This document shows, in pieces, positions 26,412 to 63,837 of a DNA stretch of 64,000 nt. This DNA comes from Escherichia phage YJin-2024a. The stretch is from sequence record PP534475.1; one strand, given 5' to 3'. The position numbers were made by a program, and so were the translations under genes. A model generated the notes under the pieces. The model was not told where the DNA came from. It made no database searches and was given only the letters and a program-made list of their open reading frames with translations. Position 1 is the stretch's first letter. Every line of letters begins with the position of its first letter.

Positions 26412-26443
26412 TAGAATTTCCTCTCTCATTAATTTATAAACTT

Positions 26444-26472
26444 ATTATACAGAATTTTAAGGCTTAAAGCAA
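26444..26472 (-). promoter_or_regulatory. early sigma70 promoter, PN25-like family
   Basis: TTGCTT-17-TATAAT read on the minus strand, followed by the conserved ATAAATTAATGAGAGAGG leader. Confidence 0.65.
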
Positions 26473-26489
26473 CTGAATTTTTTAATTAC

Positions 26490-26921
26490 TTACCAATCGT
26501 TAACAACGCCGGAGAACTCAGAAGCAAAAACTTTTTCAAATTTCTCAGCAATTTCAGGATGATCTTTGCAGATCAGCTCAATACAGGCTTCTGGAGTCAT
26601 TCCTTCATCTTCAGGATCACCATAGTATTTATCCCAAAGATCATCAGGAATGATATGCTCCGCCAAATCTTGGAAAGAGATTAACTGATAACGTTCTGCC
26701 TCCTCAGGGATAAGAATTTCGCACAGATCTTTATCTATATCGCTACGATAATCCGCAATTAATAGGGCATTGCAAGCATGACATTCCCAGACCATCAAAC
26801 GTTCAGAGATAGGGTTAGACTTATTCTGAACGTAAGACTGGAACAAGGTTCGGAAAGTTGCCTTAACTTGTTCAAACTTATCTGCTGCTGCGAAAACTAG
26901 AGCTTTATCAACTTTGTTCAT
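26490..26921 (-). CDS. hypothetical acidic protein (143 aa)
   Basis: ORF with promoter and RBS upstream. Confidence 0.55.
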   Translation of the reverse strand: MNKVDKALVFAAADKFEQVKATFRTLFQSYVQNKSNPISERLMVWECHACNALLIADYRSDIDKDLCEILIPEEAERYQLISFQDLAEHIIPDDLWDKYYGDPEDEGMTPEACIELICKDHPEIAEKFEKVFASEFSGVVNDW

Positions 26922-26951
26922 TTTGATTCCTTCTCATCAATTTATAAAGTA

Positions 26952-26980
26952 ATTATACAGAAACTTAAGCATTTTAGCAA
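26952..26980 (-). promoter_or_regulatory. early sigma70 promoter, PN25-like family
   Basis: TTGCTA-17-TATAAT on the minus strand. Confidence 0.55.
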
Positions 26981-27088
26981 ATAAAACTTTTAATTAAAAT
27001 GCCTAATCCTGTGCCAATAGCAATACAAATGATTATAAGTATTGCTATCGCTTGTATGCTTCGTTTAATAATAGCCTCAGCTATACAC

Positions 27089-27610
27089 TTAGCCATTTAA
27101 CATCCAGCTAGTTTTATCGTGCGAAGTGTACTTACCACTCATGATGTCTTCCAGACGTACTGGTGATTTTGCATACTCGACACAAACGTTAATATAACGA
27201 GGATCCCCCATTAGCTCAAAGTGAGTATGCCCATGTAAGTTCTTCTTACCTCTCAGCTCCCCAGGGTGTATTGGAGCATGGGAAAGCCAGAAGTTTTTAT
27301 ACTTAACTAGTGATTGTACGTTATCTACAATCCCTATTAAGTCTTTGAAAGATAATCCTTCTCGTTCTAAGTCGTGGTTTCCTAAAACTAACGTAGTTCT
27401 AACATTGCCAAAGAGTTTTTCGAACTTCTCCAAACCATTTCTAGATACAAATGCGTCTCCTAAAATATAGAATACTGTACGCTTATCTTTCACGGATGTA
27501 ATAGTATCCATAATAAATTCGTCATGCTCTTCCATAGTAGAGAAGATTGGTCTGAATTTAGTAATATTTGTATGTCCTAAGTGGAGATCACTCCAAAAGC
27601 AAACTTTCAT
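27089..27610 (-). CDS. metallophosphoesterase / Ser-Thr phosphatase-like (173 aa)
   Basis: GDAF...GNHD...HGHTH motifs. Confidence 0.7.
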   Translation of the reverse strand: MKVCFWSDLHLGHTNITKFRPIFSTMEEHDEFIMDTITSVKDKRTVFYILGDAFVSRNGLEKFEKLFGNVRTTLVLGNHDLEREGLSFKDLIGIVDNVQSLVKYKNFWLSHAPIHPGELRGKKNLHGHTHFELMGDPRYINVCVEYAKSPVRLEDIMSGKYTSHDKTSWMLNG

Positions 27611-28721: not shown

Positions 28722-28725
28722 TTAA

Positions 28726-29103
28726 TTATCTCCAGTGGTTAGTATGCTTCTCAGCTTCCTCATCGTTAGGCTCAAAGACAACATGGCAGTCAACTGCTTC
28801 CCAAAAAGCCTCACGGATTAAAGAGTTTTTAGCTGAAATGTCTAATTCTCCCCACTCTTCTAAAGTCTCTAGGTCTGTATCAACTTCGGTATCACAGCCA
28901 ACCAGCCCCAAAGAAACAACAATAGTAACGCGATCTTCACGTTGTTCGGGATAAACATCAGCATATTCCCAAGCAGCTTCTTCAACATAATATTGTTGTT
29001 CCTTTTCTGGAAGTGACTTATACTTTTCTTCTGTAATACCCATCTCAACAGCGCGAGTACCACAAACTACATTGTTATTAATAATTAGATATGCATAGTT
29101 CAT
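28726..29103 (-). CDS. hypothetical acidic protein (125 aa)
   Basis: ORF only. Confidence 0.5.
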   Translation of the reverse strand: MNYAYLIINNNVVCGTRAVEMGITEEKYKSLPEKEQQYYVEEAAWEYADVYPEQREDRVTIVVSLGLVGCDTEVDTDLETLEEWGELDISAKNSLIREAFWEAVDCHVVFEPNDEEAEKHTNHWR

Positions 29104-29212
29104 CGTAATACTCCTATTTCTTGAGTGGCAAAGATGGCTATTAATATGACTAAAATCCCTACAAAGATATGTGACATAATCATATTAATGTCTCTCATTA
29201 ATTTATATAAGT

Positions 29213-29241
29213 ATTATATCAAAATTTTTAGCAAAAAGCAA
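29213..29241 (-). promoter_or_regulatory. early sigma70 promoter, PN25-like family
   Basis: TTGCTT-17-TATAAT on the minus strand. Confidence 0.6.
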
Positions 29242-29282
29242 GTAAAATAAAAGCCTGATCAGCTAAGATCAGGCTTTGTTTA

Positions 29283-29573
29283 TTAGTCCTCTGGATTATC
29301 ATCCAGGAAATTTTTAATAGCTTCGTGCATAGTTTCTTTACGAAGCTGACGTCCAATCAGAATATGATTAGCTTCTACTCGACCATTAGGTAAGCGATCT
29401 GCCAGAACTACTACAGGAACTTGACGCACACCAAATTTCTGCATTAATTCTGTATTATCAGTCTCTTTATGGATTTCCAAATTATAGTCACTGACTACTT
29501 TATCAAATACTGGCTCAAACATTTTGCAAGGATTACAAGTGGAACCTTTCAATAGATATACTAATTTACTCAT
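29283..29573 (-). CDS. thioredoxin/glutaredoxin-like protein
   Basis: CNPC redox motif near the N-terminus; 96 aa. Confidence 0.6.
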   Translation of the reverse strand: MSKLVYLLKGSTCNPCKMFEPVFDKVVSDYNLEIHKETDNTELMQKFGVRQVPVVVLADRLPNGRVEANHILIGRQLRKETMHEAIKNFLDDNPED

Positions 29574-29997
29574 AGTTATTAATGGCCTCTAAGAAGTTTC
29601 TCATAGTTTTTACGGTTGCGGTGCTTAGATCAAGATTTACACCCAAACACTCGGTTAATGCCTCCTGATAAGGAGCCTTCAATCTGCCTTCTGGGACTTC
29701 TACCTTTTTATACTCTTTATTTTTGACCTTTTTAATCATAGTCTCTAGTACAAGGAGAGGTAATTTAGCACCTTCAATATCAGTACCCAAAAGTTTAGTT
29801 AAAATTTTATTAAGATCAAGACGAGTTAACTTTTTGCCCTTAGACATAGATGCACCTACCTTTGTATCAATAGATTTTTCCGCTTTCTTTTCGAGCTTTT
29901 TGTACTCAGGAGAGTCATGATCACGGAGTGCAATGTTTAGCTCGTAATGTGGTATACGAAAATGTTCCGCCATTTGAGTATAGAAACGATCAGACAT
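29566..29997 (-). CDS. hypothetical protein (143 aa)
   Basis: ORF only. Confidence 0.5.
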   Translation of the reverse strand: MSDRFYTQMAEHFRIPHYELNIALRDHDSPEYKKLEKKAEKSIDTKVGASMSKGKKLTRLDLNKILTKLLGTDIEGAKLPLLVLETMIKKVKNKEYKKVEVPEGRLKAPYQEALTECLGVNLDLSTATVKTMRNFLEAINNYE

Positions 29998-30072
29998 AAT
30001 ATATACCTCTCTTAACTAATTTATGTATATATTATATAATAACTAGGGCTAAAAGTCAACTACTTTTTTATC

Positions 30073-30489
30073 TTAATCTACTGCATGGATAAATCTTTTC
30101 CTAACTAGATACATAGTTATTGGGTAAATTGAGTACATAAGTATCGGGGAGAAAAGGGTGAAATAAGCTGTAACTCCCCCAGCTAACATCAAAGGTATTA
30201 ATGCTAGAGTAAGGGCCATAAGAATCATGCCGAATGAAACAGCCAAAGCTATGGATATAGGATTCTCTAGTTCCATCCATAACCAACAATATTTCGTATC
30301 TCTATGGCAATTGCATTTACAAACGCCGAATGAACCCATAATTATATACTCTAGTCCGTGAATAACCTTTATTAATAAGCTATTTCGGGTAGTTAATGCA
30401 AGGATAGTAAAGACTATCATTAAAACGAATACTACTAGACTTATTTTCCAGATACCTAGCAGCATCATAGTGAATAGTTCTGCAAACAT
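30073..30489 (-). CDS. multi-pass membrane protein (138 aa)
   Basis: Four hydrophobic segments. Confidence 0.5.
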   Translation of the reverse strand: MFAELFTMMLLGIWKISLVVFVLMIVFTILALTTRNSLLIKVIHGLEYIIMGSFGVCKCNCHRDTKYCWLWMELENPISIALAVSFGMILMALTLALIPLMLAGGVTAYFTLFSPILMYSIYPITMYLVRKRFIHAVD

Positions 30490-31633: not shown

Positions 31634-31657
31634 TTGTAACCTCCTCTAACCAGTACC

Positions 31658-31686
31658 ATTATACTAATTTTGGAGGAAAATTACAA
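31658..31686 (-). promoter_or_regulatory. early sigma70 promoter upstream of the lysis genes
   Basis: TTGTAA-17-TATAAT on the minus strand. Confidence 0.45.
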
Positions 31687-31789
31687 TGTGTTTTTAAAGA
31701 TCACTTCTGGAGCATAAAATTTTGTCGTTGTCAAGAAGAATTTTAGATAAAAGAAAAGCCAGGGTCGTTAAACCCTGGCTTAAAATTAC

Positions 31790-33507: not shown

Positions 33508-33881
33508 GCTAATCTCTCCTCAAATTCTTTACTCTGCTTTTTAGCAATTAATGTTACCAATCCAGGCTTTGCAGCTATAATGTCTTGACGACTAAGTGCT
33601 TTATCAAGCTGACTAATCTTTTTGTCTAGATCTGCTTGCGAAATATTATTCATTGTGAAATACTGATTCATTCTAGTCTCACGAAGTTCGCTTTCAGCTT
33701 TCACTTTATTAAGGGAAGTCTCTAGAGAAGAAATCTTTTTAGTAGCTACCGCAAGATCTCCCGCCAAAGTCTCCACTTTATTTACTAAGTGATAAGCACC
33801 GAATCCGATGCCTATCGCTAGACCTGCTCCCAGGATATACCACTTACCTTTCCATAGAGAACCGATAAAGTTTTTTATCAT
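33438..33881 (-). CDS. membrane-anchored coiled-coil protein, i-spanin-like
   Basis: N-terminal TM helix plus long coiled coil; overlaps the downstream lipoprotein gene. Confidence 0.45.
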   Translation of the reverse strand: MIKNFIGSLWKGKWYILGAGLAIGIGFGAYHLVNKVETLAGDLAVATKKISSLETSLNKVKAESELRETRMNQYFTMNNISQADLDKKISQLDKALSRQDIIAAKPGLVTLIAKKQSKEFEERLACLSGSVEYCSQPQSQSQAVRKK

Positions 33882-34558
33882 CTTTTCATATTCCTGAATG
33901 ACGTAACCGTATCAAATCCATGTGCTGCTAGACGGTCTTTATCTGATACAGTAATCATATCAGGCTCGCCCGTCCCTAACACGCCCCAGATATATTGCTC
34001 GATCATCTGGTGCAAACGGTATAAGTTACTTTCAATTTCCTGCCACGGAATACCTGATAGGTGTAGACGCGGATTAGTTATAATCTTGAAGTATTTATTG
34101 CTATCTTTATCATTTGGAACTAATGAATCTAGAACTGCTAGCGGTACTCTTAGCTCAGATAAGGCTTCTTTAGCTTTCGGGGTAACTTCTTCTTGCCACG
34201 ATAAGATCGACTCTTTTGGCTTCCCTCTGTTTATGTCTAGCAAAGAAAACCCTGTTGACCATCCCTTCTCATCTAAAATTTCTAACGCCTTGTCCAGACT
34301 GAAGGTTTTTACTTGGGTATCCAGTACATCAATGTGGTATAACCAGTAAATCTCCCCAGCTAGGAAGAAAGGCAAAATTTTAAAGTAGCCAATCTTCCCC
34401 TCAATACGAGCAATCCTACGTTCTTGCATGATCATATAGTTGCCCTCATCTGGGGCTTTTATTGTTAGCTCTTCAGTTTTACGTTCCCAAACACGATCTG
34501 CGTCAAATAAACTGTTCTGCAAATCATACACATCTACGAATTTAGAGATGATTCTCAT
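33878..34558 (-). CDS. hypothetical protein (226 aa)
   Basis: ORF with PN25-like promoter upstream. Confidence 0.55.
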   Translation of the reverse strand: MRIISKFVDVYDLQNSLFDADRVWERKTEELTIKAPDEGNYMIMQERRIARIEGKIGYFKILPFFLAGEIYWLYHIDVLDTQVKTFSLDKALEILDEKGWSTGFSLLDINRGKPKESILSWQEEVTPKAKEALSELRVPLAVLDSLVPNDKDSNKYFKIITNPRLHLSGIPWQEIESNLYRLHQMIEQYIWGVLGTGEPDMITVSDKDRLAAHGFDTVTSFRNMKR

Positions 34559-34589
34559 ATTTAATCCTCTTGCCTCAATCTATGAGTAT

Positions 34590-34618
34590 ATTATACAAAA
34601 GTTTGGGCATCTAAGCAA
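34590..34618 (-). promoter_or_regulatory. early sigma70 promoter, PN25-like family
   Basis: TTGCTT-17-TATAAT on the minus strand. Confidence 0.55.
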
Positions 34619-34712
34619 CTAAAATTTTATTATAAAAATAGCCCAGTCGCAAAAGTGCAGGCTGGGCTTTGTCATTATTTGCTTTTGCTAGTAAGTTGAT
34701 TTAGCATCAATC

Positions 34713-36143: not shown

Positions 36144-36411
36144 AACGACAAGTAAAAGAACTGGAGCTATTAGTACGTTGAGTGGTTATTTCACCACGTT
36201 TGCTAATAGTAACGGCTGGAGTAGAGAAGTTTTTATTAGTATAGATCTCTACTTTACCATTACGTTCCTTAACATCACGAACTTTACCATACTCGGTAAT
36301 AATGCCGTTCTGTTGGACTTTAACATTACCATTTTTCATAGAAACTTTGGTAGATGCCAGAGAACCGAAACTAACTGCGGAGATCATCAGTGCAATAATA
36401 AACTTATTCAT
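36112..36411 (-). CDS. secreted periplasmic protein
   Basis: Signal peptide MNKFIIALMISAVSFGSLAS from the internal start. Confidence 0.45.
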   Translation of the reverse strand: MNKFIIALMISAVSFGSLASTKVSMKNGNVKVQQNGIITEYGKVRDVKERNGKVEIYTNKNFSTPAVTISKRGEITTQRTNSSSSFTCRYDCDFEGEDE

Positions 36412-36685
36412 CTTCATCCTCGCCACTACAATCACGACATACATCATAATCGTTGAAAGAACGTTCGTGAGCTTCACACCACCAAGAACAAGAATCGCAG
36501 AGAAACATTTCGGTTTTCTCCAGTGCTTGACCTAAAAGATCATCAGCTTCCTCAGCAGGAATCTTCAATCCGCACACATCTGCCACACGTTCTTTAATTA
36601 AACGACCTGCTTCGTGGTAAGACATACAGGTTCCCGTAACATCATGTTCAAGAACATGAACAGCACAGTCTAGACGAGTTTTCAT
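36404..36685 (-). CDS. zinc-ribbon protein (93 aa)
   Basis: CDSCSWWC ... CRDC cysteine pairs. Confidence 0.5.
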   Translation of the reverse strand: MKTRLDCAVHVLEHDVTGTCMSYHEAGRLIKERVADVCGLKIPAEEADDLLGQALEKTEMFLCDSCSWWCEAHERSFNDYDVCRDCSGEDEDE

Positions 36686-36715
36686 TTCAAACCTCTCTCA
36701 TCAATTTATAAACAT

Positions 36716-36744
36716 ATTATAGCAAGAAAAGAGAGGTTTAGCAA
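36716..36744 (-). promoter_or_regulatory. early sigma70 promoter, PN25-like family
   Basis: TTGCTA-17-TATAAT on the minus strand. Confidence 0.55.
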
Positions 36745-36761
36745 ATGAATTATTTCAGAAT

Positions 36762-37109
36762 TTAGTCATAGCACCACCATAACCCATGCTTACGCATGTC
36801 ATGATCGCGATTATAATCATAATTTTCTGGATCTTTCATCACGCGGTGGAGTTCTTGACGATTCCCTTGACGAACCATTTTATTAGAATGCCACTTAACA
36901 TTCTTACTAATAGAATTCCAGTTATAACCATCCTTTTTCTCATTACGAATGGTTGCTTCCTTCATTTCCTGTTCTACATCATCCCAGGATTTAGCATAAA
37001 TAACACGAATCCAGTAGCCATTTTCTTTGAGGAAAGAATATTCTTGAGAGAAGTGTTCTTTAGACTTCCACCACTGATCACCAGATTGTCTACGATAAGT
37101 ACGGCTCAT
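36762..37109 (-). CDS. hypothetical protein (115 aa)
   Basis: ORF only. Confidence 0.5.
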   Translation of the reverse strand: MSRTYRRQSGDQWWKSKEHFSQEYSFLKENGYWIRVIYAKSWDDVEQEMKEATIRNEKKDGYNWNSISKNVKWHSNKMVRQGNRQELHRVMKDPENYDYNRDHDMRKHGLWWCYD

Positions 37110-37230
37110 ATTACCTCCATTAAGTCTTTTAAATTAACCTAATGTGGATGAATTTTATTATACATAAACTATTTTCCTGTATACAGAAAAACCCCAGACT
37201 ACTTATTCAATAGCTGGGGTTTGTTATTAA

Positions 37231-38519: not shown

Positions 38520-38726
38520 TTAATATTTAATTGCAGAACGTTTACCATTTCTAGGCGCACCTGGAAGTCGTGCACGTTCTGCCATTCTTCGCTTAATCTT
38601 TGAGATATTTTCTAGTGTTTGTTCTTCAGGCTTAATACCTGAAACACTACACCACTGATTACCATCCCATGCGATAATGATCATAACACCATTACCCATA
38701 ATCTTTTCTGTGAAAGTAATTCTCAT
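38520..38726 (-). CDS. hypothetical protein
   Basis: ORF between tRNA genes; start at internal Met. Confidence 0.35.
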   Translation of the reverse strand: MRITFTEKIMGNGVMIIIAWDGNQWCSVSGIKPEEQTLENISKIKRRMAERARLPGAPRNGKRSAIKY

Positions 38727-39019
38727 TATAGCAACTCGTCTAAGCAAGAGGTATATTTAAGTTTACCATCTTTATCTACTTTGATTTCGACTTCCGCTCG
38801 TGGTACTTGACGAACTACACCATGAATCATCTTATAGCGAATGCCTTTAGCTGGTTCACGATCTTTTGGAAATACTTGCTTAACCGTTACTACCTTGAAA
38901 CCCTCACGCGGTGTTAACACTACTACTTGATCACCTTCTTTGATCTTCCAAGAGCTAGGAAATTCATAGGTATAGCGTTGACCACCAGTTTGGAACACAA
39001 CAGAAAGATAACGTTTCAT
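38726..39019 (-). CDS. hypothetical protein (97 aa)
   Basis: ORF with PN25-like promoter upstream. Confidence 0.5.
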   Translation of the reverse strand: MKRYLSVVFQTGGQRYTYEFPSSWKIKEGDQVVVLTPREGFKVVTVKQVFPKDREPAKGIRYKMIHGVVRQVPRAEVEIKVDKDGKLKYTSCLDELL

Positions 39020-39049
39020 TTGGTTTCCCTCTCATTAATTTATATAAAT

Positions 39050-39078
39050 ATTATAACAAGAAATAAGAGAGAAGGCAA
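39050..39078 (-). promoter_or_regulatory. early sigma70 promoter, PN25-like family
   Basis: TTGCCT-17-TATAAT on the minus strand. Confidence 0.5.
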
Positions 39079-39086
39079 ATGAATTT

Positions 39087-39254
39087 TTAATAAAGTTTAG
39101 TCACTTCATAAACTATACTACGAGATTCTTTATTACGTTGTATTAAATTAGCGTATGCTTCTTCAGCTTCATTTTTAGTATTAAAGTCTATAACGTGAGA
39201 GGTATTAGCTCTATTTGATTGGCTATACCAGATAACTACTAGGAGTTTAAACAT
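39087..39254 (-). CDS. hypothetical protein
   Basis: Start moved to the internal Met with AAGGAT RBS to avoid the adjacent tRNA. Confidence 0.35.
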   Translation of the reverse strand: MFKLLVVIWYSQSNRANTSHVIDFNTKNEAEEAYANLIQRNKESRSIVYEVTKLY

Positions 39255-40680: not shown

Positions 40681-40863
40681 TTATAAACCAGCAGAAGCCT
40701 CATTTAAAGCATCAACAATAGCCTGTTGTTGCGTCCATCCTCTACCAGTAGAATTAACATGTGGAAGATATACTTCCCAATAACCGTCCTCTAGTAAGGT
40801 TATTTGTGCACTAAACTCTGTGCCATCAGTTAGTGTAACCTTCACAGTTTTTGTTAAAGACAT
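40681..40863 (-). CDS. hypothetical protein (60 aa)
   Basis: ORF only. Confidence 0.4.
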   Translation of the reverse strand: MSLTKTVKVTLTDGTEFSAQITLLEDGYWEVYLPHVNSTGRGWTQQQAIVDALNEASAGL

Positions 40864-40879
40864 ATATTATCCTATAAGT

Positions 40880-40969
40880 TGGCAGAAGATAATGGAGTCG
40901 AACCATCACCGTATCGCTACAGCGGGCTGGTTTTCAAGACCAGTTACGTACCACTACGTCCTATCTTCT
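40880..40969 (-). tRNA. tRNA-Ser (UGA), type II
   Basis: 90 nt; perfect acceptor pairing; loop CUUGAAA. Confidence 0.7.
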
Positions 40970-40975
40970 ATTGTT

Positions 40976-41066
40976 TGGCGGAAGAGGAGAGATTTGAACT
41001 CTCAAGCCGTTTTACCAGTCAGCCACTTTCCAAGCGGTTTTCGTCGCCAATTCGATTTGCTCTTCC
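40976..41066 (-). tRNA. tRNA-Ser (GGA), type II
   Basis: 91 nt; perfect acceptor and T stems; loop UUGGAAA. Confidence 0.6.
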
Positions 41067-41178
41067 AATAATAAGATGATGCCTCTATCACACCAGGCAG
41101 TTACGCCTCGCTGGGATTCGAACCCATTAAAACAGCTCAACCGAGATAGTAGGTTTAATTTACTCTGACCATCAAATT

Positions 41179-41255
41179 TGGTGCGTGACAAGGGATTCGA
41201 ACCCTCAAAACCCGACTTCTAAGGACGGTATGTATGCCAATTCCATCAATCACGC
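41179..41255 (-). tRNA. tRNA, anticodon UAG (Leu-like) with short variable arm
   Basis: Acceptor and T-arm pairing; GAATTGG D-loop; loop CUUAGAA. Confidence 0.55.
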
Positions 41256-41260
41256 ATGTT

Positions 41261-41339
41261 TGGTGGAGAATAACGGAATCGAACCGTTCTGATGTCCTCG
41301 GTGCAAGCGAGGTGTCCACTCCATGCAGACCCATTCCCC
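41261..41339 (-). tRNA. tRNA-Ala (UGC)
   Basis: Acceptor and T-arm pairing; loop CUUGCAC. Confidence 0.65.
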
Positions 41340-41671
41340 AAATTCTTTAGTTTACTAAGGCTATTAGCTCGGCGTAACTACAGCACCTTCGCTTCAAGCG
41401 GAAGGAACCGCGTCATCTCGCAAACCCGATACACTATTCAGTTGCCACTGAATCTAGTGGACTAATCTAGAACTTCTCCCGAATCGTAGGGATCGTGCTT
41501 TTTGGCAGCCAGTCCTAGGTCGAGCTAATACCTTAGTGAACTAAATTGATGGATACCAGACTAATTTTGCTACGACGTTTATCCTGGGGATCTCTTTTTC
41601 GGTAGCTCTGCTAGTGTAGACGTCATACACCTGGTATCTAGGCAGCTATTTTCGCATCAATTTATATAAAT

Positions 41672-41700
41672 ATAATAACAAGAAATTAAGCATCAAGCAA
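41672..41700 (-). promoter_or_regulatory. early sigma70 promoter feeding a tRNA operon through a ~330 nt non-coding leader
   Basis: TTGCTT-17-TATTAT on the minus strand; no ORF downstream before the tRNAs. Confidence 0.45.
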
Positions 41701-41718
41701 CTACGTTTTTCTTGAAAT

Positions 41719-42310: not shown

Positions 42311-42343
42311 TTTTGCTTTCCTTCTCTTCACTTTATAAAATAT

Positions 42344-42372
42344 ATTATACAGAGAATTAAGCAGAATAGCAA
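42344..42372 (-). promoter_or_regulatory. early sigma70 promoter, PN25-like family
   Basis: TTGCTA-17-TATAAT on the minus strand. Confidence 0.55.
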
Positions 42373-42764
42373 ATGAATTTTTAATAAATTTACTTATTGT
42401 GTAGGCCACCTGGAGGCTATGAACCCCACGGCTGACAAAGAAGTTTGCGAGACCTCTCTTAAATGCCAGAATAGACCCGCCGATCTATCGGAACCTACAT
42501 AATAAGTAAACTTTATAGTGTCATTCTAGACAGGACTCGAACCTGTTATCACTTGTGCGGACTTACGAGAACCATTCTTTCACTCGAATCGAACGAGCTT
42601 CTGCCCTAGCCAAGCTGGTTTCCCCATCAACCACGCTAGAATGTTTGATTGTTTTCAGTGCAAGAGTCCGAGTCTTGGACACGACCGCTTCGCAAGTACA
42701 TAGGCAGCTTATCATGAGTCAGCACTTCCGAATTGCTAGCTCCGTGTTCTGCACTGAAATTTTG

Positions 42765-43112
42765 TTAATTTAATAGTAAAGTACGATCTACTTCACCATT
42801 AATTGTTCGGCATTCTTCTGGGATTGCTGGTGTAGTCTTATATTCCCACCATTCAGAACCATCATATTCACCACGTTCTAACCAAGTTCCGTCAGTAAAC
42901 CATACATTACCATAAAGCAATTGCCCACCGAAACCCGAGTCATATTTAAAGTCTAGATTATTTAGAAAATCTTCAATATCTTTTTCTGTATAACCTACGG
43001 GCAATACCCAAACTTCTTTGTCTCCATAATAACCGAATTCTATCTTAATACACTTAACTTCAGAATTAGTATTCTTTAGGGCAAGTAACAACTCTTCTTT
43101 AGCATTAATCAT
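42765..43112 (-). CDS. hypothetical protein (115 aa)
   Basis: ORF only. Confidence 0.5.
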   Translation of the reverse strand: MINAKEELLLALKNTNSEVKCIKIEFGYYGDKEVWVLPVGYTEKDIEDFLNNLDFKYDSGFGGQLLYGNVWFTDGTWLERGEYDGSEWWEYKTTPAIPEECRTINGEVDRTLLLN

Positions 43113-43138
43113 AGCATATTTCTCGTGCTAGTTTAATT

Positions 43139-43215
43139 TGGCGCGACCGATGGGATTCGAACCCACATTCTCTCCCGTGACAGGGGAGTACCATTACCAA
43201 GCCAGCCCCGGTCGC
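43139..43215 (-). tRNA. tRNA-Asp (GUC)
   Basis: Perfect acceptor pairing; loop CUGUCAC. Confidence 0.75.
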
Positions 43216-43823: not shown

Positions 43824-43871
43824 ATTTATCTTATTCTATCATGTTGCTTCTCCAGTTCAATTTATGTAATT

Positions 43872-43900
43872 ATTATACAGAACTTTTGGAAACTAAGCAA
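43872..43900 (-). promoter_or_regulatory. early sigma70 promoter upstream of tRNA-Cys
   Basis: TTGCTT-17-TATAAT on the minus strand. Confidence 0.5.
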
Positions 43901-44180
43901 CTACATTTTTTAAGAATTTGATGCCTTTCTTTTTCTTCTTATATTTCCACGTTAATGGATTCTGTCGATTGTGAACGCTTGAGATCTTTGTCTCGTCAAA
44001 GTTCTTCAATATCATGTAATCACAAGATAATTGTTCTAATGGAATGTGATCACCGTCAAAAGCGTATACATAAGGCTGTTGACTAGCACGATAATGATAG
44101 ACTTTGTTAATTCTACGTTTCAGCGACTTATCCGCGCAGTAAATAAAGAAGTTTTCAGGATGCATCAGCAGCTCCTTCAA
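43893..44180 (-). CDS. hypothetical basic protein (95 aa)
   Basis: ORF only. Confidence 0.45.
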   Translation of the reverse strand: MKELLMHPENFFIYCADKSLKRRINKVYHYRASQQPYVYAFDGDHIPLEQLSCDYMILKNFDETKISSVHNRQNPLTWKYKKKKKGIKFLKNVVA

Positions 44181-44348: not shown

Positions 44349-44425
44349 TGGCGTCCTGTGCGGGGATCGAACCCGCAAATCCTACCTTGAAAGGGTAGTG
44401 ACTTTACCAGTTTGTCTAACAGGAC
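44349..44425 (-). tRNA. tRNA-Glu (UUC)
   Basis: Perfect acceptor, T and anticodon stems; loop CUUUCAA. Confidence 0.75.
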
Positions 44426-44431
44426 TTAAAT

Positions 44432-44519
44432 TGGTGGGGAAAGATGGAGTCGAACCACCCGAGTCGCAATGACAACTGATTTACAGTCAGCTCTGCTACC
44501 ACTTACAGAATATTTCCCC
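44432..44519 (-). tRNA. tRNA-Tyr (GUA), type II
   Basis: 88 nt; perfect acceptor pairing; loop CUGUAAA. Confidence 0.7.
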
Positions 44520-44650
44520 ATATTTAGAAGTATTCAAAAAATTCTAATTTAAACACTTTTAAATATGTTTCCAAATTAGATAACTATTATACCAAGTTTT
44601 AAGGCACTGAGCAAGTCAAATTTTAAAGAACTTGCTCAGTGCTGTATTAG

Positions 44651-44926
44651 TTAGTCGAACTTAGGAGCGACAGTTAAGGAGAACGGAAGTTCGAAAACTT
44701 CTTCGCCCTCATCACTAACAGTAATTACACGACCTTTAAGTTCAGACATTGAAATATCAATATCAGCTTTTGCATCTGGAGCCATGCCAGCTTCAACACA
44801 TTTAGCTTTAATTTCCGGCAGAAGTTCTACATCGTAGAAATAAAGCCATTCAATCTCACCTTCCCAGCCTTCCCAGGATTTACAGATTGCACTTTCAATA
44901 CCAGTTGCTATAACACGATTTTGCAT
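44651..44926 (-). CDS. hypothetical acidic protein (91 aa)
   Basis: ORF with promoter upstream. Confidence 0.5.
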   Translation of the reverse strand: MQNRVIATGIESAICKSWEGWEGEIEWLYFYDVELLPEIKAKCVEAGMAPDAKADIDISMSELKGRVITVSDEGEEVFELPFSLTVAPKFD

Positions 44927-45576: not shown

Positions 45577-45762
45577 TTATCCTCGTTCAATATCTAGGGA
45601 AATACCACAGTTAGGATTAATACCTGTACCACTGCAATTTGGGCAAACCCAGATATTGCAAAAAGTATCTCCTGCTTCTGCATCAGAACTTTCACCAATT
45701 CCCCTACACTCAGGGCAGACACATTCTTCTAGCTCTTGCTTGAGTTCTTGAAACTTAGACAT
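45577..45762 (-). CDS. small zinc-finger protein with two CxxCxGxG motifs (DnaJ-type zinc centre)
   Basis: CPECRGIG and CPNCSGTG. Confidence 0.5.
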   Translation of the reverse strand: MSKFQELKQELEECVCPECRGIGESSDAEAGDTFCNIWVCPNCSGTGINPNCGISLDIERG

Positions 45763-45770: not shown

Positions 45771-46172
45771 CTAATTAAGTTTTTCAAAACGACCTAGAGA
45801 ATCTCTAGTCATCTTATTTAAGATTTTTCCCATATTCTGCTTTCTTGTGAATAATTCTAGGTTAGGTAAAGCATTATTAGACTTATCATCATCTTTGTGC
45901 TCTATTTCATAGCCTTCCGGTATTTCACCGTTGAAAGCCATCCATACGAGTCTGTGCACATATTCATTTTTACCTAGTCCCTTATTGCAAATTTTCACCT
46001 GAAAATATCCAGATTTACCATTGCAACGTGGAGATAATACCTTTCCTTTTATAGTTCTAGTGTACTCGCTATATTGATTTCGTTGTGTTATTATTCTATC
46101 CTTAGTTTCTATTGTACCATTTAAGTGTACAATTAAAATAACACCAAAGTACTCAAATTCAACCTTTTCCAT
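45771..46172 (-). CDS. HNH homing endonuclease
   Basis: EIEHKDDDKSNNALPNLELFTRKQN HNH-family motif. Confidence 0.65.
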   Translation of the reverse strand: MEKVEFEYFGVILIVHLNGTIETKDRIITQRNQYSEYTRTIKGKVLSPRCNGKSGYFQVKICNKGLGKNEYVHRLVWMAFNGEIPEGYEIEHKDDDKSNNALPNLELFTRKQNMGKILNKMTRDSLGRFEKLN

Positions 46173-46267: not shown

Positions 46268-46361
46268 TGGAGGAAGATGCCAGACTCGAACTGGCACACC
46301 GTGTTTCCACAGTTACTGGCTGTTTAGCAAACAGCTCCCTTACCTTTAGGGTTAATCTTCC
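46268..46361 (-). tRNA. tRNA-Ser (GCU), type II
   Basis: 94 nt; perfect acceptor and T stems; loop UUGCUAA. Confidence 0.65.
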
Positions 46362-46382
46362 AAATTTATAAGATATATTATA

Positions 46383-46844
46383 TTAGAAATTTAGCTTCAT
46401 AGCAAGAAAATTTTTCAAGTTTTCGGTAGACATCTCATCCACATCTATAGGAGAAACAAAGCCGTTTAATTTTCTAGCAAATTTTTCACCTGCAGGGTCA
46501 TTATCCCCGACAGCTACCAATTTAAAAGGTAGTAATTTCAGTTGCTTTAATAACGCAACTGCCTTAAATACAGATTCAGCAATCAATACTACTTTTTCAT
46601 CTCCATTGAGAGTTTCTAGTCCCCATACACACTGGGTAGTAGAATGAGTAAAGTATTTAGCTTCAAAGGGGCACTTACCATGACCTTTTGGAGCAGAAGG
46701 ATTATAAGTTTGATAGCCCCTCAACATCCCAGAGAAGTCATATAACGGGACTGTTAGCCATCCTTCCGGACTTAACCAGCAATGATATTTATCTGTATCA
46801 AATCCTCTAGATAAGAGGTGCTGTGTTAGCTCATCAACATTCAT
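46383..46844 (-). CDS. Toprim-like domain protein
   Basis: VVLIAESVF ... VAVGDNDPAG resembles the Toprim acidic motif. Confidence 0.45.
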   Translation of the reverse strand: MNVDELTQHLLSRGFDTDKYHCWLSPEGWLTVPLYDFSGMLRGYQTYNPSAPKGHGKCPFEAKYFTHSTTQCVWGLETLNGDEKVVLIAESVFKAVALLKQLKLLPFKLVAVGDNDPAGEKFARKLNGFVSPIDVDEMSTENLKNFLAMKLNF

Positions 46845-46874
46845 ATTTGGTTCCTCTCTCAAATTTATAGATAT

Positions 46875-46903
46875 ATTATACAGAGAATTTAGCATTCAAG
46901 CAA
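46875..46903 (-). promoter_or_regulatory. early sigma70 promoter, PN25-like family
   Basis: TTGCTT-17-TATAAT on the minus strand. Confidence 0.55.
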
Positions 46904-47019
46904 TCAAATTTTTTAACTTTTTAGAGAAAAATCATAGGGCACTTAAGGATAGCAGATAAGTGGTGAGGACCAAAATTTGTGACCCCACTAAAAATCCGGG
47001 GGTAATTTTTAAAGACCCC

Positions 47020-47048
47020 TTGACATTTTCGCTGGGGTAGTGTAAAGT
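47020..47048 (+). promoter_or_regulatory. sigma70 promoter for the plus-strand island (TTGACA-17-TAAAGT)
   Basis: Perfect -35 TTGACA at 47020-47025; weaker -10. Confidence 0.5.
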
Positions 47049-47110
47049 ATATGTTATGGATGAGTGATCAAAGAGACACACATTTTCTATATACTAGGAG
47101 GTGTCAAAAA

Positions 47111-55909: not shown

Positions 55910-56190
55910 TTTTTACGCCCCGCATCTTTAGCCTCCTCGGCGGTATAGATATACTGATAAGCCCCTTTGGAGTAGGCTGGAGCAGTACACATTTTCTTAC
56001 GCTCAATCTCTTCTTGAGCTTTTCTTTCGCGTTCCGCTAATTCTTCGTCCAGATAAACTAAACGTTGTTCTGGAGGAGGTGGAAGACGTGTTTCTGGCTC
56101 ACCAATATTAGCCTTTCTTATTTGACGAGGCGATTGTGCACGTTTTCTCAATGGTTTAAATCCTAATGAATTTGAGTTATAAATCCGCAT
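55906..56190 (-). CDS. hypothetical protein (94 aa)
   Basis: ORF only. Confidence 0.45.
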   Translation of the reverse strand: MRIYNSNSLGFKPLRKRAQSPRQIRKANIGEPETRLPPPPEQRLVYLDEELAERERKAQEEIERKKMCTAPAYSKGAYQYIYTAEEAKDAGRKK

Positions 56191-56266
56191 AAAGCCCTCC
56201 TCACTTTCAATACGAATATTATACTAAATTAGAGGGCTTTAAGCAAGAAAATTTTTAATTTATTTA

Positions 56267-56743
56267 TCACATCTCAGCCATTTCAGCTTCAGTAATAACT
56301 GTATTACACAATGCATCTACAGCTTCATTACCACTAATACCAGAATGCCCTTTAACCTTAATAAAGGTAGGATTAGTATTATGAAAGTTGATATACTGCT
56401 GTGTTAATTTAAATGCTTCCTGCCAAAGTTCTAGATTAAGAGGAACTTCACCATCTGCTTTCTTCCAGCCTTTCCTTTGCCAAGAAAACATCCAACTTTC
56501 CATGCCATTTTTGCAATAAGCAGAGTCAGTATAGATAGCAATTGGTCTATTATCTTTTTTAACAGACCAACGTAGAGCTTCTACAATAGCTGTGAGTTCC
56601 ATCTCATTATTTGTAGTTTTAGGATTATAACCAGATTTAGAACCCAAACGATCGTCGTTATCATTATAGACAATAAAACCCCAAGCACCTGGACCTGGGT
56701 TAGACTTACAAGCACCATCTGTGTAAATGTGGAAAACCGACAT
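56267..56743 (-). CDS. rnh: ribonuclease H
   Basis: VFHIYTDGACKSNPGPGAWG ... TNNEMEL RNase HI motifs; start at the ATG with GGGAGG RBS. Confidence 0.8.
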   Translation of the reverse strand: MSVFHIYTDGACKSNPGPGAWGFIVYNDNDDRLGSKSGYNPKTTNNEMELTAIVEALRWSVKKDNRPIAIYTDSAYCKNGMESWMFSWQRKGWKKADGEVPLNLELWQEAFKLTQQYINFHNTNPTFIKVKGHSGISGNEAVDALCNTVITEAEMAEM

Positions 56744-57024
56744 TATACCTCCCAACTAATTTTAAGACCCATGTCCACAAAGGCAGCTTCTCGGTAATAT
56801 TGAGAGATATGATACCCCTTATCCGATAAGGTTTTTAGTACCGATTTAGCTGCTCCTGGCATTTCTCTAGGATTATATAGCCACCTAGCGTAAGGATTAT
56901 CTCGAATAATTATTTCTGTATTTCCAGACTTAGCAGCTTCTACAATCTTTTCTTCTATAAACTTTAGAAATGCGGGTACTTCTGTTAATCCTGCAAGTTC
57001 TTGAGCTTCTTTGGCTGAAATCAC
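56743..57024 (-). CDS. hypothetical protein (93 aa)
   Basis: ORF behind a PN25-like promoter. Confidence 0.5.
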   Translation of the reverse strand: MISAKEAQELAGLTEVPAFLKFIEEKIVEAAKSGNTEIIIRDNPYARWLYNPREMPGAAKSVLKTLSDKGYHISQYYREAAFVDMGLKISWEV

Positions 57025-57049
57025 TATATACCTCCAATTTATAAAATAT

Positions 57050-57078
57050 ATTATATTTAAATTTCACTAAATAAGCAA
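57050..57078 (-). promoter_or_regulatory. early sigma70 promoter, PN25-like family
   Basis: TTGCTT-17-TATAAT on the minus strand. Confidence 0.55.
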
Positions 57079-57117
57079 ATGAAATTTAAATATAATAGCC
57101 CCGAAGGGCTATTTGAG

Positions 57118-58329: not shown

Positions 58330-58862
58330 TAATAAGTAACCAATTCCTGTACAAATCGCAGGCTGTTATCACTGTTTGCGCCAGTTGCGTAAACTAAACG
58401 AGTAGATTCATAGTTGTAATCTAGAATCGTATTATCCAGATGTACATCTGCCTCTAGTTTTTGATTACTAAAGATTGTGGATACAAAAGCACTTTCAATA
58501 TGTCCATGAATATACATTTCGTACAATAATGTTGCGCCACCTAAAACCACTGTCTGTTGATCTTTTAAGAATGTAGGTAATGTATCCCCAATCTTAGAAA
58601 TTGGGGTATAGATACCATGTTTAATATCATCAGGCAGAGGACGATCTGCACGAATAAAGAGGTCAGATTCTCCAATCATACGTTGTCGAACAACTTCTGG
58701 AAGTGCTAAATAAGTACCAGCACCAATGATGATGTTATCTGGATTCAACATGTCCAGTTGAGAATAGAAAGCATCTAGTTCTTCTTTGAAGGAACCCCAT
58801 GGAAGTTTACCGCGGAGGCCGAACTCCCCATTCGGCCCAACTGCATACATTGCTGTAATCAT
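58329..58862 (-). CDS. dihydrofolate reductase
   Basis: 177 aa; N-terminal [15 protein letters not shown]; ATGA overlap with thymidylate synthase. Confidence 0.75.
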
Positions 58863-60004
58863 AAGAAATCTCCAAATTCATTACCCAGATCTTTCAGAGT
58901 ATCAGTAGAGGTTTCGGTGACTTGACCTACACGATATGCTGCACCAATCTGGATTTCTTGTGGAGCAGGCTGTAAAGAAGTGGTATCCAGCCAGTTCATG
59001 ATCCATGGAATAGGGTTCTTGGTGATTACCGGCAGGTTACTTGGCCATTCTACACCAATGTGCATAAACGCATTACGTCCCACAAAATATAGGTACTCTT
59101 CTAGAAGTTCTGCGTTCAAACCAATCAGACTACGACCTTTGAAAATGAAATGACCCCACTCAATTTCAGTTTTCAGAGTTTTCAGGAGCTGTGCTGGTGC
59201 TTTAGCTACTGCTTCATCTACCAGATCTTTGTCAAATTGTTGAAACATAATCTGGATGATTGCTTTGGACATCTGGGTGTGCAGAGCTTCATCTTTAGCG
59301 ATTAATTGTAGATTTTTAGCAATACCTTGCAGAATATCGTTCTCTGCTAATGCAAAGGTACATGCAAAGGATGCGTAAAACTGCATTGCTTCCAGACCGT
59401 AGATCGCAAAGTAAGCGTCTAATAGTTTAGCCTGAGTTTCACGTTTAACTTCAGGGAACTCAGTTTCTGGATATGTATTGTCACCACGATGATCGCGTAC
59501 TGCGATGAAATACTGACCTAACTGGTACAGTTCATCAAATAGTTCAACAGAATCAGCGATGCGTGCGAATGCTTCTTGGTTTTTGGTTACAGAATCAATA
59601 AATTCTGCTGGATCAGTTAACACATTACGAATAATATTGCTATAAGCACGACTATGCAGATCTTCGAAGTAGCTCCACTGTTTGAGCATACCCTCTAATT
59701 CTGGACGACTTACAAGCGGCATAATAGCTGCTTCAGGAGCACGACTGATAAAGGAATCAGTTTGAGTCTGCCATGCTAAGTTCAGGAGTGTAATTTCCTG
59801 AATTTCACGTGGGAGGTTAGGCCATTGTTTCTTATCTGCTTCCAGACTGATTTCAGTTTCAGTCCAAAATTGAGAGCGTTGCAGAAGTGCCAGACGTTCT
59901 AGTTCTGGATGTGCTACACGTACATAATCTGCGATACCGAGAGAATCTCCCAGGAAAAGGTCAGCGTTAGTATGATCCCAATTCAGGTTTAGTAAAGTAG
60001 TCAT
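58859..60004 (-). CDS. nrdB: ribonucleotide reductase small subunit
   Basis: 381 aa; diiron-ligand region (EALHT, EAMQF); overlaps the DHFR start. Confidence 0.85.
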   Translation of the reverse strand: MTTLLNLNWDHTNADLFLGDSLGIADYVRVAHPELERLALLQRSQFWTETEISLEADKKQWPNLPREIQEITLLNLAWQTQTDSFISRAPEAAIMPLVSRPELEGMLKQWSYFEDLHSRAYSNIIRNVLTDPAEFIDSVTKNQEAFARIADSVELFDELYQLGQYFIAVRDHRGDNTYPETEFPEVKRETQAKLLDAYFAIYGLEAMQFYASFACTFALAENDILQGIAKNLQLIAKDEALHTQMSKAIIQIMFQQFDKDLVDEAVAKAPAQLLKTLKTEIEWGHFIFKGRSLIGLNAELLEEYLYFVGRNAFMHIGVEWPSNLPVITKNPIPWIMNWLDTTSLQPAPQEIQIGAAYRVGQVTETSTDTLKDLGNEFGDFL

Positions 60005-60077
60005 TGATTTTCCTCTTTCTCACTATTTCAGGAATATTATAGCAAATCTGGTAGCGATTAGCAAGTAAAATTTCAAA

Positions 60078-60110
60078 GAAAAAAGGAGACCCGAAGATCT
60101 CCTTGTTTTT
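60078..60110. terminator. hairpin flanked by A-run and T-run between nrdA and nrdB
   Basis: AGGAGA-loop-TCTCCT with aaaaaa upstream and tgttttt downstream. Confidence 0.45.
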
Positions 60111-62442: not shown

Positions 62443-62584
62443 TTGGCTTTCCTTTTTATAGTTATCAGGATTTAAGGAATATTCTACTTTATTATCGGTC
62501 ATTAGGCAAATAAAATTTTCTGATAGAAAAGGCCCGAGTATTTTCATACCCAGGCCCTGTATATTACCAGTCTAGCTTTTTAGC

Positions 62585-62806
62585 TTATTCAATTACTTTA
62601 GCTCTAGCTACTTCTTTTAATAGAATATCTATGGAGGTGCTCAGCTCGTTATAATTGAATGGTTTATTTGGATTTGAGGTTACAATTTTCCACGCTAGGG
62701 TTGTCTTAGGACTTTCTTCCCCTTCCTTACGTGTAATCATATTAGCAGCACTCAGTGAAGTACGATGTATTTTAGTTTTACGGCTCAGATGAACGACGTT
62801 TCCCAT
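62585..62806 (-). CDS. hypothetical protein
   Basis: ORF downstream of phoH; start placed at internal Met to avoid overlap. Confidence 0.3.
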   Translation of the reverse strand: MGNVVHLSRKTKIHRTSLSAANMITRKEGEESPKTTLAWKIVTSNPNKPFNYNELSTSIDILLKEVARAKVIE

Positions 62807-62807
62807 A

Positions 62808-63560
62808 TTACACCTTCCCCATGTCTTTAAAAATATCATAGAATGCTTTAGACTCAACAGAACGAACGTTATCAATCAGTTCGATCATTGAGAATGGGGC
62901 ATTTTCGTATTTCTCATAGACTTCCATAAGGAGTGCTAGACCTGAGTCACCTTTAATGTCTTTCTGAGCTATATCTCCGCAGATAATTAAACGGCAGTCT
63001 TGTCCTACACGAGTTAGGAGACAAATCATTGCCTCAACGGAAATATTCTGAGCTTCATCGACAATTACATAGGAGTTGTTGAAAGTTCTGCCACGAGCAT
63101 GTTCGATAGCCAAAAATTTAATTTTCTGACGTTCGACATATCCCTTATAGGCATGATCGCCGATGGCCCATTTCATACCATCAGCTATTGGCTCCAACCA
63201 AGGCTCTAGCTTTTCTGCTAGATCACCAGGAAGCATACCAAGAGACTTACCTAGAGGTTCATTAGGACGTACGAGAATCACCTGCTCAATATCTGAGTGA
63301 ATGTCTACGAGTTCCTGAGCTGCAAGAACGGACGGAATAAAGGTTTTACCAGTACCTGGCTCACCGATACCCACAGTCACTGTGTTGTTCTTGATCATAT
63401 TGATATATGATTTTTGCTCGCGGTTTTTACCTACTAGGGATTTAGCAACTGGGTTAGCGTAATCATTAGAAAAATCAGCCTGAATTACGTTATTCTCATA
63501 TTTGTTGCCACGCTTTCTTGAACCATTGCGGTTCTCTCTTTTTTGACGTGCTTTTCCCAT
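62808..63560 (-). CDS. phoH: PhoH-like ATPase
   Basis: Walker A GEPGTGKTF; start at the ATG with AGGAG RBS (the ORF track begins at an upstream GTG). Confidence 0.85.
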   Translation of the reverse strand: MGKARQKRENRNGSRKRGNKYENNVIQADFSNDYANPVAKSLVGKNREQKSYINMIKNNTVTVGIGEPGTGKTFIPSVLAAQELVDIHSDIEQVILVRPNEPLGKSLGMLPGDLAEKLEPWLEPIADGMKWAIGDHAYKGYVERQKIKFLAIEHARGRTFNNSYVIVDEAQNISVEAMICLLTRVGQDCRLIICGDIAQKDIKGDSGLALLMEVYEKYENAPFSMIELIDNVRSVESKAFYDIFKDMGKV

Positions 63561-63636
63561 AAATAACACTCCTATAGTGTACTTCGCTTCTAACAGAGGA
63601 TCAACAAAGAGATCTTGTTTATCAACTTACAAATAC

Positions 63637-63665
63637 ATTATAACAAGGTTTACAGCAAAAAGCAA
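63637..63665 (-). promoter_or_regulatory. early sigma70 promoter upstream of phoH
   Basis: TTGCTT-17-TATAAT on the minus strand. Confidence 0.5.
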
Positions 63666-63837
63666 GTATAATTTTAAATAAACCTATGATATTGCTTTTA
63701 AATAAAAAATTTACTTGCTTATAAAGGTAGAAGTATGATACTAGATAATCATTTATTTATATGTAAAGATATTATGCTGTATAGCATCAATAAAAATTGA
63801 TAAAAATCAAAAGTCAAATAGTATTAGAAAAATGTAG

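Follow-up and report, generated by a model that had tools for sequence, protein, structure and literature searches.

Background

The early promoters of T5 are among the strong promoters of bacterial type that have been known for longest, and the T5/N25 promoter of expression vectors and of promoter-escape studies comes from them. The T5 record AY543070 annotates 75-nucleotide (nt) 'promoter' features throughout the early region, with historical promoter names such as P10a, P11, P13a/b, P14a/b, P15a/b/c, P16-17, P-D/E33, P-H207 and P-F30, and a second T5 record, AY587007, calls the sites 'putative early promoter T5P22...T5P33'. In T5 all temporal classes of genes are transcribed by the host sigma70 RNA polymerase, and the early promoters have a common ATATT discriminator (PMC7472727, Klimuk et al. 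2020). For phage AKFV33, 32 promoters have been described with the consensus TTGCTw, a 17-18 bp spacer, TATAATA, AAAAATT at -43 and TAAATT at +1 (PMC3326045, Niu et al. 2012). Here we analyse the copies of a promoter of this kind in a stretch of 64,000 nt from Escherichia phage YJin-2024a (PP534475.1), the whole of which is called the window below. An earlier note on this DNA had described the copies from the letters alone. We can state with high confidence that they are sigma70-dependent early promoters of a T5-like phage, and their -35 and -10 hexamers, the A-tract upstream and an ATAAATT box at the predicted start are under purifying selection.

Many Escherichia and Salmonella phages of the T5 type are 95-98% identical to the window. 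Collinearity with T5 itself runs from T5 105, equivalent to window 11997, as far as T5 49.5 kb or beyond. The source of the window is a T5-like phage (Demerecviridae, Markadamsvirinae).

Excess and orientation of the promoter copies

The whole window was searched for TTGCTT-N17-TATAAT with at most one mismatch, and dinucleotide-preserving shuffles served as the null. There were 24 matches, against 1.22 expected from the shuffle mean and a shuffle maximum of 5, and 21 of the 24 were minus-strand matches in 26444-63665. We also built a 94-nt weight matrix, trained solely on 18 annotated promoters of phage T5, which were chosen to avoid circularity. On the minus strand this matrix returned 23 matches within 26472-63665, with scores of 28-77 bits, and on the plus strand a single one, of 52.1 bits at 10706. 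These scores have to be read with the homology between the T5 training sites and those of the window in mind; the best score across 20 shuffled windows was 0.9 bits. Taking the matrix scan and the shuffle-tested motif search together, the excess is beyond doubt, and the earlier figure of at least 18 copies was conservative.

One could suppose that the motif is a by-product of AT-rich intergenic composition, that is, a set of chance sigma70-like sequences. The GC content is around 39%, and generic sigma70-like sites are indeed frequent, about 55 per 20 kb, which equals the shuffle expectation. A generic TTGACA/TATAAT scan was not enriched (59 sites versus 58.7 expected, and 49 versus 53.8), therefore the excess is specific to the extended pattern of the family, and such a scan is unusable for finding it. 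However, the specific pattern is 20-fold above the dinucleotide-preserving shuffles, and the strict orientation of the copies and the purifying selection on their hexamers contradict a chance origin. With the shuffle excess, the matrix scores and the hexamer constraint all against it, this explanation is ruled out, and the probability that we would still give it is negligible.

The spacer measures 17 bp in 23 copies and 18 bp in one, and single-base variants of the hexamers are found among the copies (TTGACT, TTGCTC and TTGCCT at -35, TATTAT at -10). The copies occur at a density of about 1 per 1.6 kb, all oriented with the early genes, and each one points at an open reading frame (ORF) on its own strand, at a tRNA or at an ORF-free RNA region. 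Terminator hairpins stand directly before some of them, as at 29241 and 60064. The copies had been placed upstream of most early genes, which is not what we found: there are 23 promoters for about 99 features, each promoter heading a short operon instead. The 24 copies are listed below with their elements, what each is predicted to drive, the matrix score, and the T5 counterpart with its identity.

26430-26486, minus strand: TTGCTT (26472-26467), TATAAT (26449-26444), ATAAATT and GAGAGG; drives ORF 26160-26429; 77.0 bits; T5 16245-16319, 98.7%.
26938-26994, minus strand: copy 26980, TTGCTA; drives ORF 26490-26921; 54.3 bits; by collinearity its -10 would be the T5 P-F30 feature 16779-16784.
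29199-29255, minus strand: copy 29241, TTGCTT, just past the terminator hairpin 29277-29250; 48.6 bits; T5 18550-18624, 93.9% over 49 nt.
30017-30073, minus strand: TTGACT variant, GAGAGG; drives ORF 29566-29997; 43.4 bits; T5 19368-19442, 100%.
34576-34632, minus strand: TTGCTT, box variant ATAGATT; drives ORF 33878-34558; 63.9 bits; T5 24443-24517, 96%.
36702-36758, minus strand: TTGCTA, GAGAGG; drives ORF 36404-36685; 66.7 bits; T5 26722-26796, 94.4%.
39036-39092, minus strand: TTGCCT; drives ORF 38726-39019, then tRNA-Ile and tRNA-Met; 63.5 bits; T5 P11, 94%.
41658-41714, minus strand: copy 41700, TTGCTT, -10 TATTAT, no ribosome-binding site; 325 ORF-free nt, then tRNA-Ala and tRNA-Leu; 46.1 bits; T5 P13b, 94.6%.
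42330-42386, minus strand: TTGCTA, box variant ATAAAGT; drives a 52-aa ORF, then tRNA-Pro and tRNA-Met; 55.4 bits; T5 P13a, 92%.
43858-43914, minus strand: copy 43900, TTGCTT; tRNA-Cys 41 nt downstream; 65.4 bits; T5 P14b, 98.7%.
44572-44628, minus strand: copy 44614, TTGCTC, degenerate box CTAATTT; heads the tRNA-Tyr/Glu/Trp/Phe cluster; 56.8 bits; T5 P14a, 98.6%.
44943-45000, minus strand: TTGCCT (44986-44981), 18-bp spacer; drives ORF 44651-44926; T5 P15c, 97.3%.
46363-46419, minus strand: copy 46405, TTGCTA, inside the 3' end of a primase-like ORF; tRNA-Ser 8 nt past the predicted start; 43.4 bits; T5 P15b, 97.1%.
46861-46917, minus strand: copy 46903, TTGCTT, GAGAGG; drives the primase-like ORF 46383-46895; 71.5 bits; T5 P15a, 95.9%.
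50702-50758, minus strand: copy 50744, TTGCTA; about 790 ORF-free nt (equivalent of T5 'RNAX'), then tRNA-Arg; 63.5 bits; T5 P16-17, 94.8%.
51384-51440, minus strand: TTGCTT, GAGAGG; drives ORF 51196-51366; 64.4 bits; T5 P-D/E33, 93.3%.
52224-52280, minus strand: TTGCTA, box TTAAATT; drives ORF 51890-52207; 62.4 bits; T5 43067-43141, 93.3%.
53551-53607, minus strand: copy 53593, TTGCTT; drives ORF 53342-53524; 66.5 bits; T5 44393-44467, 95.9%.
55409-55465, minus strand: copy 55451, TTGCTA; drives ORF 54868-55410; 48.7 bits; T5 P-H207, 100% over 65 nt.
56204-56260, minus strand: copy 56246, TTGCTT, no ATAAATT box; drives ORF 55906-56190; 51.9 bits; T5 46337-46411, 98.7%.
57036-57092, minus strand: TTGCTT, just past a hairpin; drives ORF 56743-57024; 31.8 bits; T5 46937-47011, 85.7%.
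60022-60078, minus strand: copy 60064, TTGCTA, TGn extended -10, no box, just past the hairpin 60104-60083; drives the nrdB-like ORF 58859-60004; 32.3 bits.
63623-63679, minus strand: copy 63665, TTGCTT, box variant GTAAGTT; drives ORF 62808-63569; 36.2 bits.
10692-10748, plus strand: copy 10706, outside the range given in the earlier note; drives an 88-aa Cor-type lipoprotein starting at about 10766; 52.1 bits.

The Cor-type lipoprotein (MKKFVIALVAAVMLSGC..., with a lipobox) matches the superinfection-exclusion family phrog_1119 with an E-value of 1.7e-26 (plus-strand region 10692-11035), and the stretch from -10 to +7 of its promoter (TATAATAGATTCATAAATT) is identical to P_N25.

Orthology with the annotated promoters of T5

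The T5 promoter features were placed on the window by blastn-short. All 24 features between 13 and 47 kb of T5 have collinear counterparts, at 86-100% identity, and for 20 of them the counterpart is a copy of the family. Twenty of the 23 minus-strand copies thus match a 75-nt feature of AY543070, and a further one (26980) falls by collinearity on P-F30, a feature of only 6 bp. The copies had been likened to the strong early promoters of T5, and this comparison with the published promoters bears the likeness out: the architecture is the same, the positions are orthologous, and the P-H207 promoter is identical over 65 nt. P-H207 is reportedly among the promoters that were selected by function in Gentz & Bujard 1985, a set to which P-D/E33 and P_N25 also belong, whereas P10a to P16-17 are the tRNA-region promoters of the Ksenzenko group. 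The longest common stretch is labelled 'repeat c' in AY587007, and copies 3 and 4 of this repeat are the orthologues of the pair 50744 and 53593.

The classical P_N25 sequence matches T5 63048-63117 at 100%, where a promoter is annotated; it was not found in the window or in the first 50 kb of T5, and its site lies beyond the coverage of the window. In every box-bearing 75-nt feature of T5 the box starts at position 56 and the -10 at 43 or 44, so the T5 annotators evidently aligned the features on the box. On the assumption that these features run from -55 to +20, +1 would be the A of ATAAATT, which fits the initial transcribed sequence of N25. The reported composition of N25 from +1 to +11, '9 AT and 2 GC', is likewise consistent with this start (PMC12464699).

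Structure of the promoter module

The 24 copies were aligned on the -10 hexamer for information content. Conservation spans about -50 to +25 and amounts to around 56 bits in total, with zero information outside these limits. Within this module of about 70 nt we could distinguish the following blocks:

i) A-tract, directly 5' of the -35, with the consensus tTtAAAAaTTtA and 10.6 bits over 15 nt.

ii) -35 hexamer, TTGCTt, 8.8 bits.

iii) 17-nt spacer, with an AAattTt.g pattern, 7.0 bits. TG is frequent before the -10.

iv) -10 hexamer, TATAAT, 9.5 bits.

v) Discriminator, AtaTtta, 4.1 bits.

vi) Start box, TAAATT, 6.2 bits.

vii) Purine-rich leader, which is weaker, 4.4 bits.

Although the copies had been called near-identical, any two of them agree on average at 57% of the positions of a 73-nt core (40-74% from pair to pair), against 27% in the flanks. 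Copies 50744 and 53593 share the longest exact run, of 27 nt; the median run is 9 nt. The ATAAATT start region, on the other hand, was described correctly: with at most one mismatch it lies 6 nt, occasionally 7 nt, past the -10 hexamer in 20 of the 24 copies. As for the GAGAGG said to occur often, it is present exactly in 6/24 copies; most of the others have a looser Shine-Dalgarno (GAGG, GGAG or AAGG), with the start codon 25-40 nt past the -10, and five (41700, 43900, 44614, 46405 and 50744) have no ribosome-binding site and lead into tRNAs or ORF-free stretches. The box is kept in four of these five, and since it persists at promoters of tRNAs and other RNAs without a ribosome-binding site, it acts in transcription and not in translation. 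An Rfam search of the whole window returned tRNAs only, so the conserved leader is explained by no known RNA family.

Constraint across related phages

Orthologous promoters were compared among around 28 T5-like genomes, with 2-26 distinct variants spanning the core for each of the 23 minus-strand copies. The divergence was 0.7% in the -35, 1.1% in the -10, 0.6% in the ATAAATT box and about 2% in the A-tract, whereas the spacer reached 7.9%, the discriminator 8.4% and the leader 5.4%. The flanks diverged by 5.8% upstream and by 4.6% downstream, where the sequence is mostly coding. Variable sites made up 4-9% of the constrained blocks versus 21-31% elsewhere, and this holds promoter by promoter. 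Thus, purifying selection acts on both hexamers, on the A-tract and on the ATAAATT box. AT content is 94% in the box and 83% in the discriminator, with constraint on the box only; as an AT-rich discriminator is free to vary, the constraint is on sequence and not on composition.

A TAnnnT motif lies 6-9 nt past the -10 (about +2 to +7) in 21 of the 23 copies, against 4.3 expected from shuffling, and it is kept even in copies with an otherwise altered box. All the related loci (73/73) carry copies, 5-15 each, nearly all of them sense to the early genes. The exception are nrdB-anchored loci with 1-2 copies on the opposite strand, which presumably belong to divergent early genes past the end of the window.

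This comparison of around 28 genomes makes two small quantitative additions. The start box is constrained as strongly as the -35 and -10 hexamers, and the 'ATATT' discriminator, which had been put forward as the element that defines the class, belongs to the regions of the promoter under the weakest constraint. Both results could guide work on the shut-off of the T5 early genes.

Proposed mode of action

By analogy with the T5 orthologues and with N25, the host sigma70 holoenzyme would be recruited early in infection by the UP-like A-tract (about -47 to -38), the sub-consensus -35 TTGCTw and the perfect -10. The AT-rich discriminator of 6-7 nt would ease melting, transcription would start at the A of ATAAATT, and the AT- and purine-rich initial transcribed sequence would allow fast promoter escape. 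In N25 itself the initial transcribed sequence is rich in A and T, and comparison with N25anti has shown that it makes escape fast (PMC12464699). Past the start, the transcript would carry a leader of 25-40 nt with a GAGG-type ribosome-binding site and the start codon, or would run directly into tRNA or stable-RNA genes. Frequent re-initiation after terminators may keep the short early operons and the tRNA clusters strongly expressed.

In T5, primer extension revealed early kinetics for P15A, the orthologue of copy 46903 (PMC7472727). Nevertheless, several points weigh against the view of all these copies as active early promoters. In vivo, T5 gave primer-extension products for only 11 of the 19 promoters that Gentz & Bujard had found in vitro, and the signal of P15A was barely visible (PMC7472727), which means that some of the copies may have little or no activity in infected cells. 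Furthermore, a literature search for genome-wide start-site or transcriptome maps of T5-like phages found none, and the box is missing in copies 44614, 56246 and 60064 and partly in 63665. With the excess, orientation, orthology and constraint on the other side, the interpretation as sigma70-dependent early promoters is kept, and its main value is for annotation, as 23 early transcription units can now be delimited with confidence in the window.

A possible role of the start box in the early shut-off

The ATAAATT box might do more than take part in the promoter, as a distinct element that acts after polymerase recruitment. In one version of this idea, the -10-like TAnnnT at +2 to +7 would retain sigma70 and cause a promoter-proximal pause, as at lambda PR'; in the other, a phage factor, possibly together with gpT5.026, would shut off the whole early class through the box. 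The low divergence of the box, which matches that of the -35 and -10 while the adjacent AT-rich discriminator varies, and the retention of TAnnnT both speak for such an element. Moreover, T5 needs a class-wide shut-off of its early genes, and gpT5.026 binds the beta subunit of RNA polymerase, alters contacts near -5 to +2, weakening those with the discriminator, and may act in the early-to-late switch (PMC7472727). The window encodes a homologue of gpT5.026 at 24402-24860 (minus strand, 96.7% identity); Pfam gave no match for this homologue.

However, the box begins at +1, and start-site selection together with the kinetics of initial transcription and escape explains its constraint with no extra factor; in N25 the escape kinetics are known to depend on the initial transcribed sequence (PMC12464699). 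Judging by their conservation, four members of the family work without the box. In addition, neither Pfam nor the PDB relates the sole 'Q-like' ORF to Q proteins. We consider a separate role of the box unlikely, and the simpler view of it as part of the sigma70 promoter is preferred. If a class-specific cis element exists, the invariant box would be a better candidate for it than the discriminator, which is among the least constrained parts. Were the box such an element, read after recruitment, the early-to-late switch of T5 would gain a defined cis element.

The 'Q-like' ORF (45577-45762, minus strand, 61 aa) is a member of phrog_6060, which carries the 'Q-like' label, and related records name it 'antitermination protein Q'. 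Its Q identity was sought in Pfam, where no Q family was matched and only a sub-threshold zinc-ribbon appeared, and in the PDB, where no Q protein was found. The plus-strand ORFs next to it gave no Pfam match either. Q-type antitermination was rejected as the shared regulator because this ORF is zinc-ribbon-like and without similarity to Q proteins, and its 'Q' label appears unsupported. The earlier suggestion of a shared regulator is plausible but not new. What the copies have in common is that they are read by the host sigma70 RNA polymerase, and an action of gpT5.026 through the discriminator of early promoters has already been proposed in print (PMC7472727).

Possible recombination between copies

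The repeated copies had also been seen as a potential substrate for recombination. According to this explanation they would be dispersed repeats at which homologous or illegitimate recombination shuffles gene cassettes, and their similarity would be maintained by gene conversion. Shuffling of cassettes through promoter-stem-loop (PeSL) elements has been proposed for T4-type phages. We examined 73 loci from around 28 T5-like genomes, covering window 22-64 kb, by chained BLAST alignments, and took the boundaries of indels and replacements of at least 40 bp, which gave 151 distinct breakpoint clusters in 26000-63700. Under a uniform null the promoter cores are enriched, with 22 of the 151 breakpoints versus 7.9 expected (2.8-fold, p=1.5e-5). 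The breakpoints in the cores cluster at both edges of the motif, and breakpoints at the promoter edges 39090, 41715, 55461, 57039 and 29197 are widespread. The 'repeat c' label on the longest common stretch would also fit this explanation.

Nevertheless, the enrichment arises because breakpoints prefer gene junctions in general. When junctions were compared with each other, breakpoints were found at 17 of the 23 with a promoter and at 51 of the 75 without one (Fisher p=0.40), and none of the 185 unique indel or replacement events had its two ends in two different copies. In 7 genome comparisons, the identity of paralogous copies within genomes differed from that across genomes by at most 0.0006 in either direction, which means that there is no gene conversion, and paralogues were not homogenised even where the orthologous promoters had diverged by 12-15%. 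Besides, at the identity and with the exact runs given above, the shared stretches are short for homologous recombination. We regard recombination between copies as very improbable, and the idea did not survive these comparisons: the copies are kept similar by functional selection and not by sequence exchange.

Some differences in gene content were seen beside the promoters. The ~470 bp at 28726-29200, directly 3' of promoter 29241, are present in the window and absent from at least 12 related loci, being a cassette swapped exactly at the transcribed edge of this promoter. Relatives have insertions of ~500-550 bp at 26491, 29574-29580, 34557-34570, 36755-36766 and 60029-60034, several of them exactly at promoter edges. 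T5 has HNH homing-endonuclease genes of a matching size, and one of them, hegH, lies directly upstream of nrdB. The window has an HNH-like ORF as well, at 45771-46172 (PHROG HNH endonuclease, E 2e-26).

Other promoters and surrounding regions

Some orthologues of T5-annotated promoters do not belong to the TTGCTw/ATAAATT family:

23387-23461, minus strand: orthologue of a T5-annotated promoter.
31634-31698, minus strand: orthologue of a T5-annotated promoter.
37130-37203, minus strand: orthologue of a T5-annotated promoter.
47004-47075, plus strand: orthologue of a T5-annotated promoter.

One of the four is of TTGACG type, and the others are the holin/lysozyme promoter, P10a, and P12 (TTGACA-17-TAAAGT) on the plus strand, which drives the only plus-strand genes of the region. 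Therefore, more than one type of promoter serves the early region.

The ORF-free stretch of ~790 nt (49919-50700, minus strand) that lies 3' of promoter 50744 and before tRNA-Arg corresponds to T5 40848-41566, annotated as 'RNAX stable RNA with unknown functions'. Rfam reports a tRNA-like element in it at 50421-50492 (34.2 bits), which was not called by ARAGORN. The 325 ORF-free nt past promoter 41700 are a similar case and correspond to 'RNA2H' of T5.

At the right end, most related genomes lose homology upstream of ~63754, around 90 nt upstream of the last promoter copy, and a plus-strand TTGACG-17-TATAAT site at 63838-63866 stands back to back with copy 63665. This arrangement of sites suggests that promoters diverge within 63754-64000 and that early transcription changes direction there. 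At the left end, window 1-11900 precedes the equivalent of the T5 left end and has no promoter of the family except the cor promoter (10706). Relative to T5 the source record is probably permuted, or else its first letters lie in the late region or in a terminal repeat.

Comparison with known systems

The PeSL cassettes of T4-type phages likewise have repeated early promoters at cassette borders, some of them directly after terminator hairpins, but the signatures of copy-mediated shuffling were looked for in the window and not found. As in the pause elements of lambda PR', a -10-like TAnnnT occurs at a fixed distance in the initial transcribed region of the window copies; here, however, the candidate pause element begins at +2, in overlap with the start site, and there is no bona fide Q protein. 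In UP-element promoters, such as rrnB P1, the proximal subsite is AAAAAARNR at -46 to -38. The window copies have an A-tract at the corresponding position, kept among paralogues and orthologues, although their -35 is TTGCTw and not TTGACA.

The closest systems are those of the T5-like phages themselves. The Cor-type lipoprotein gene driven by the 10706 promoter is analogous to llp of T5, which is expressed early. The T5 early promoters have the same UP / TTGCTT / TATAAT / ATAAATT layout (P_N25) as the window copies, and the differences between T5 and the window are strain-level substitutions and a few changes in gene content around the copies. This promoter family is already known, both from the biology of the T5 early promoters since the 1980s and from public annotation. 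The consensus published for the AKFV33 promoter set is also identical to that of the window and covers everything that the earlier note had observed; the AKFV33 paper gives the consensus only, without the orthologue footprint and the recombination tests that are added here.

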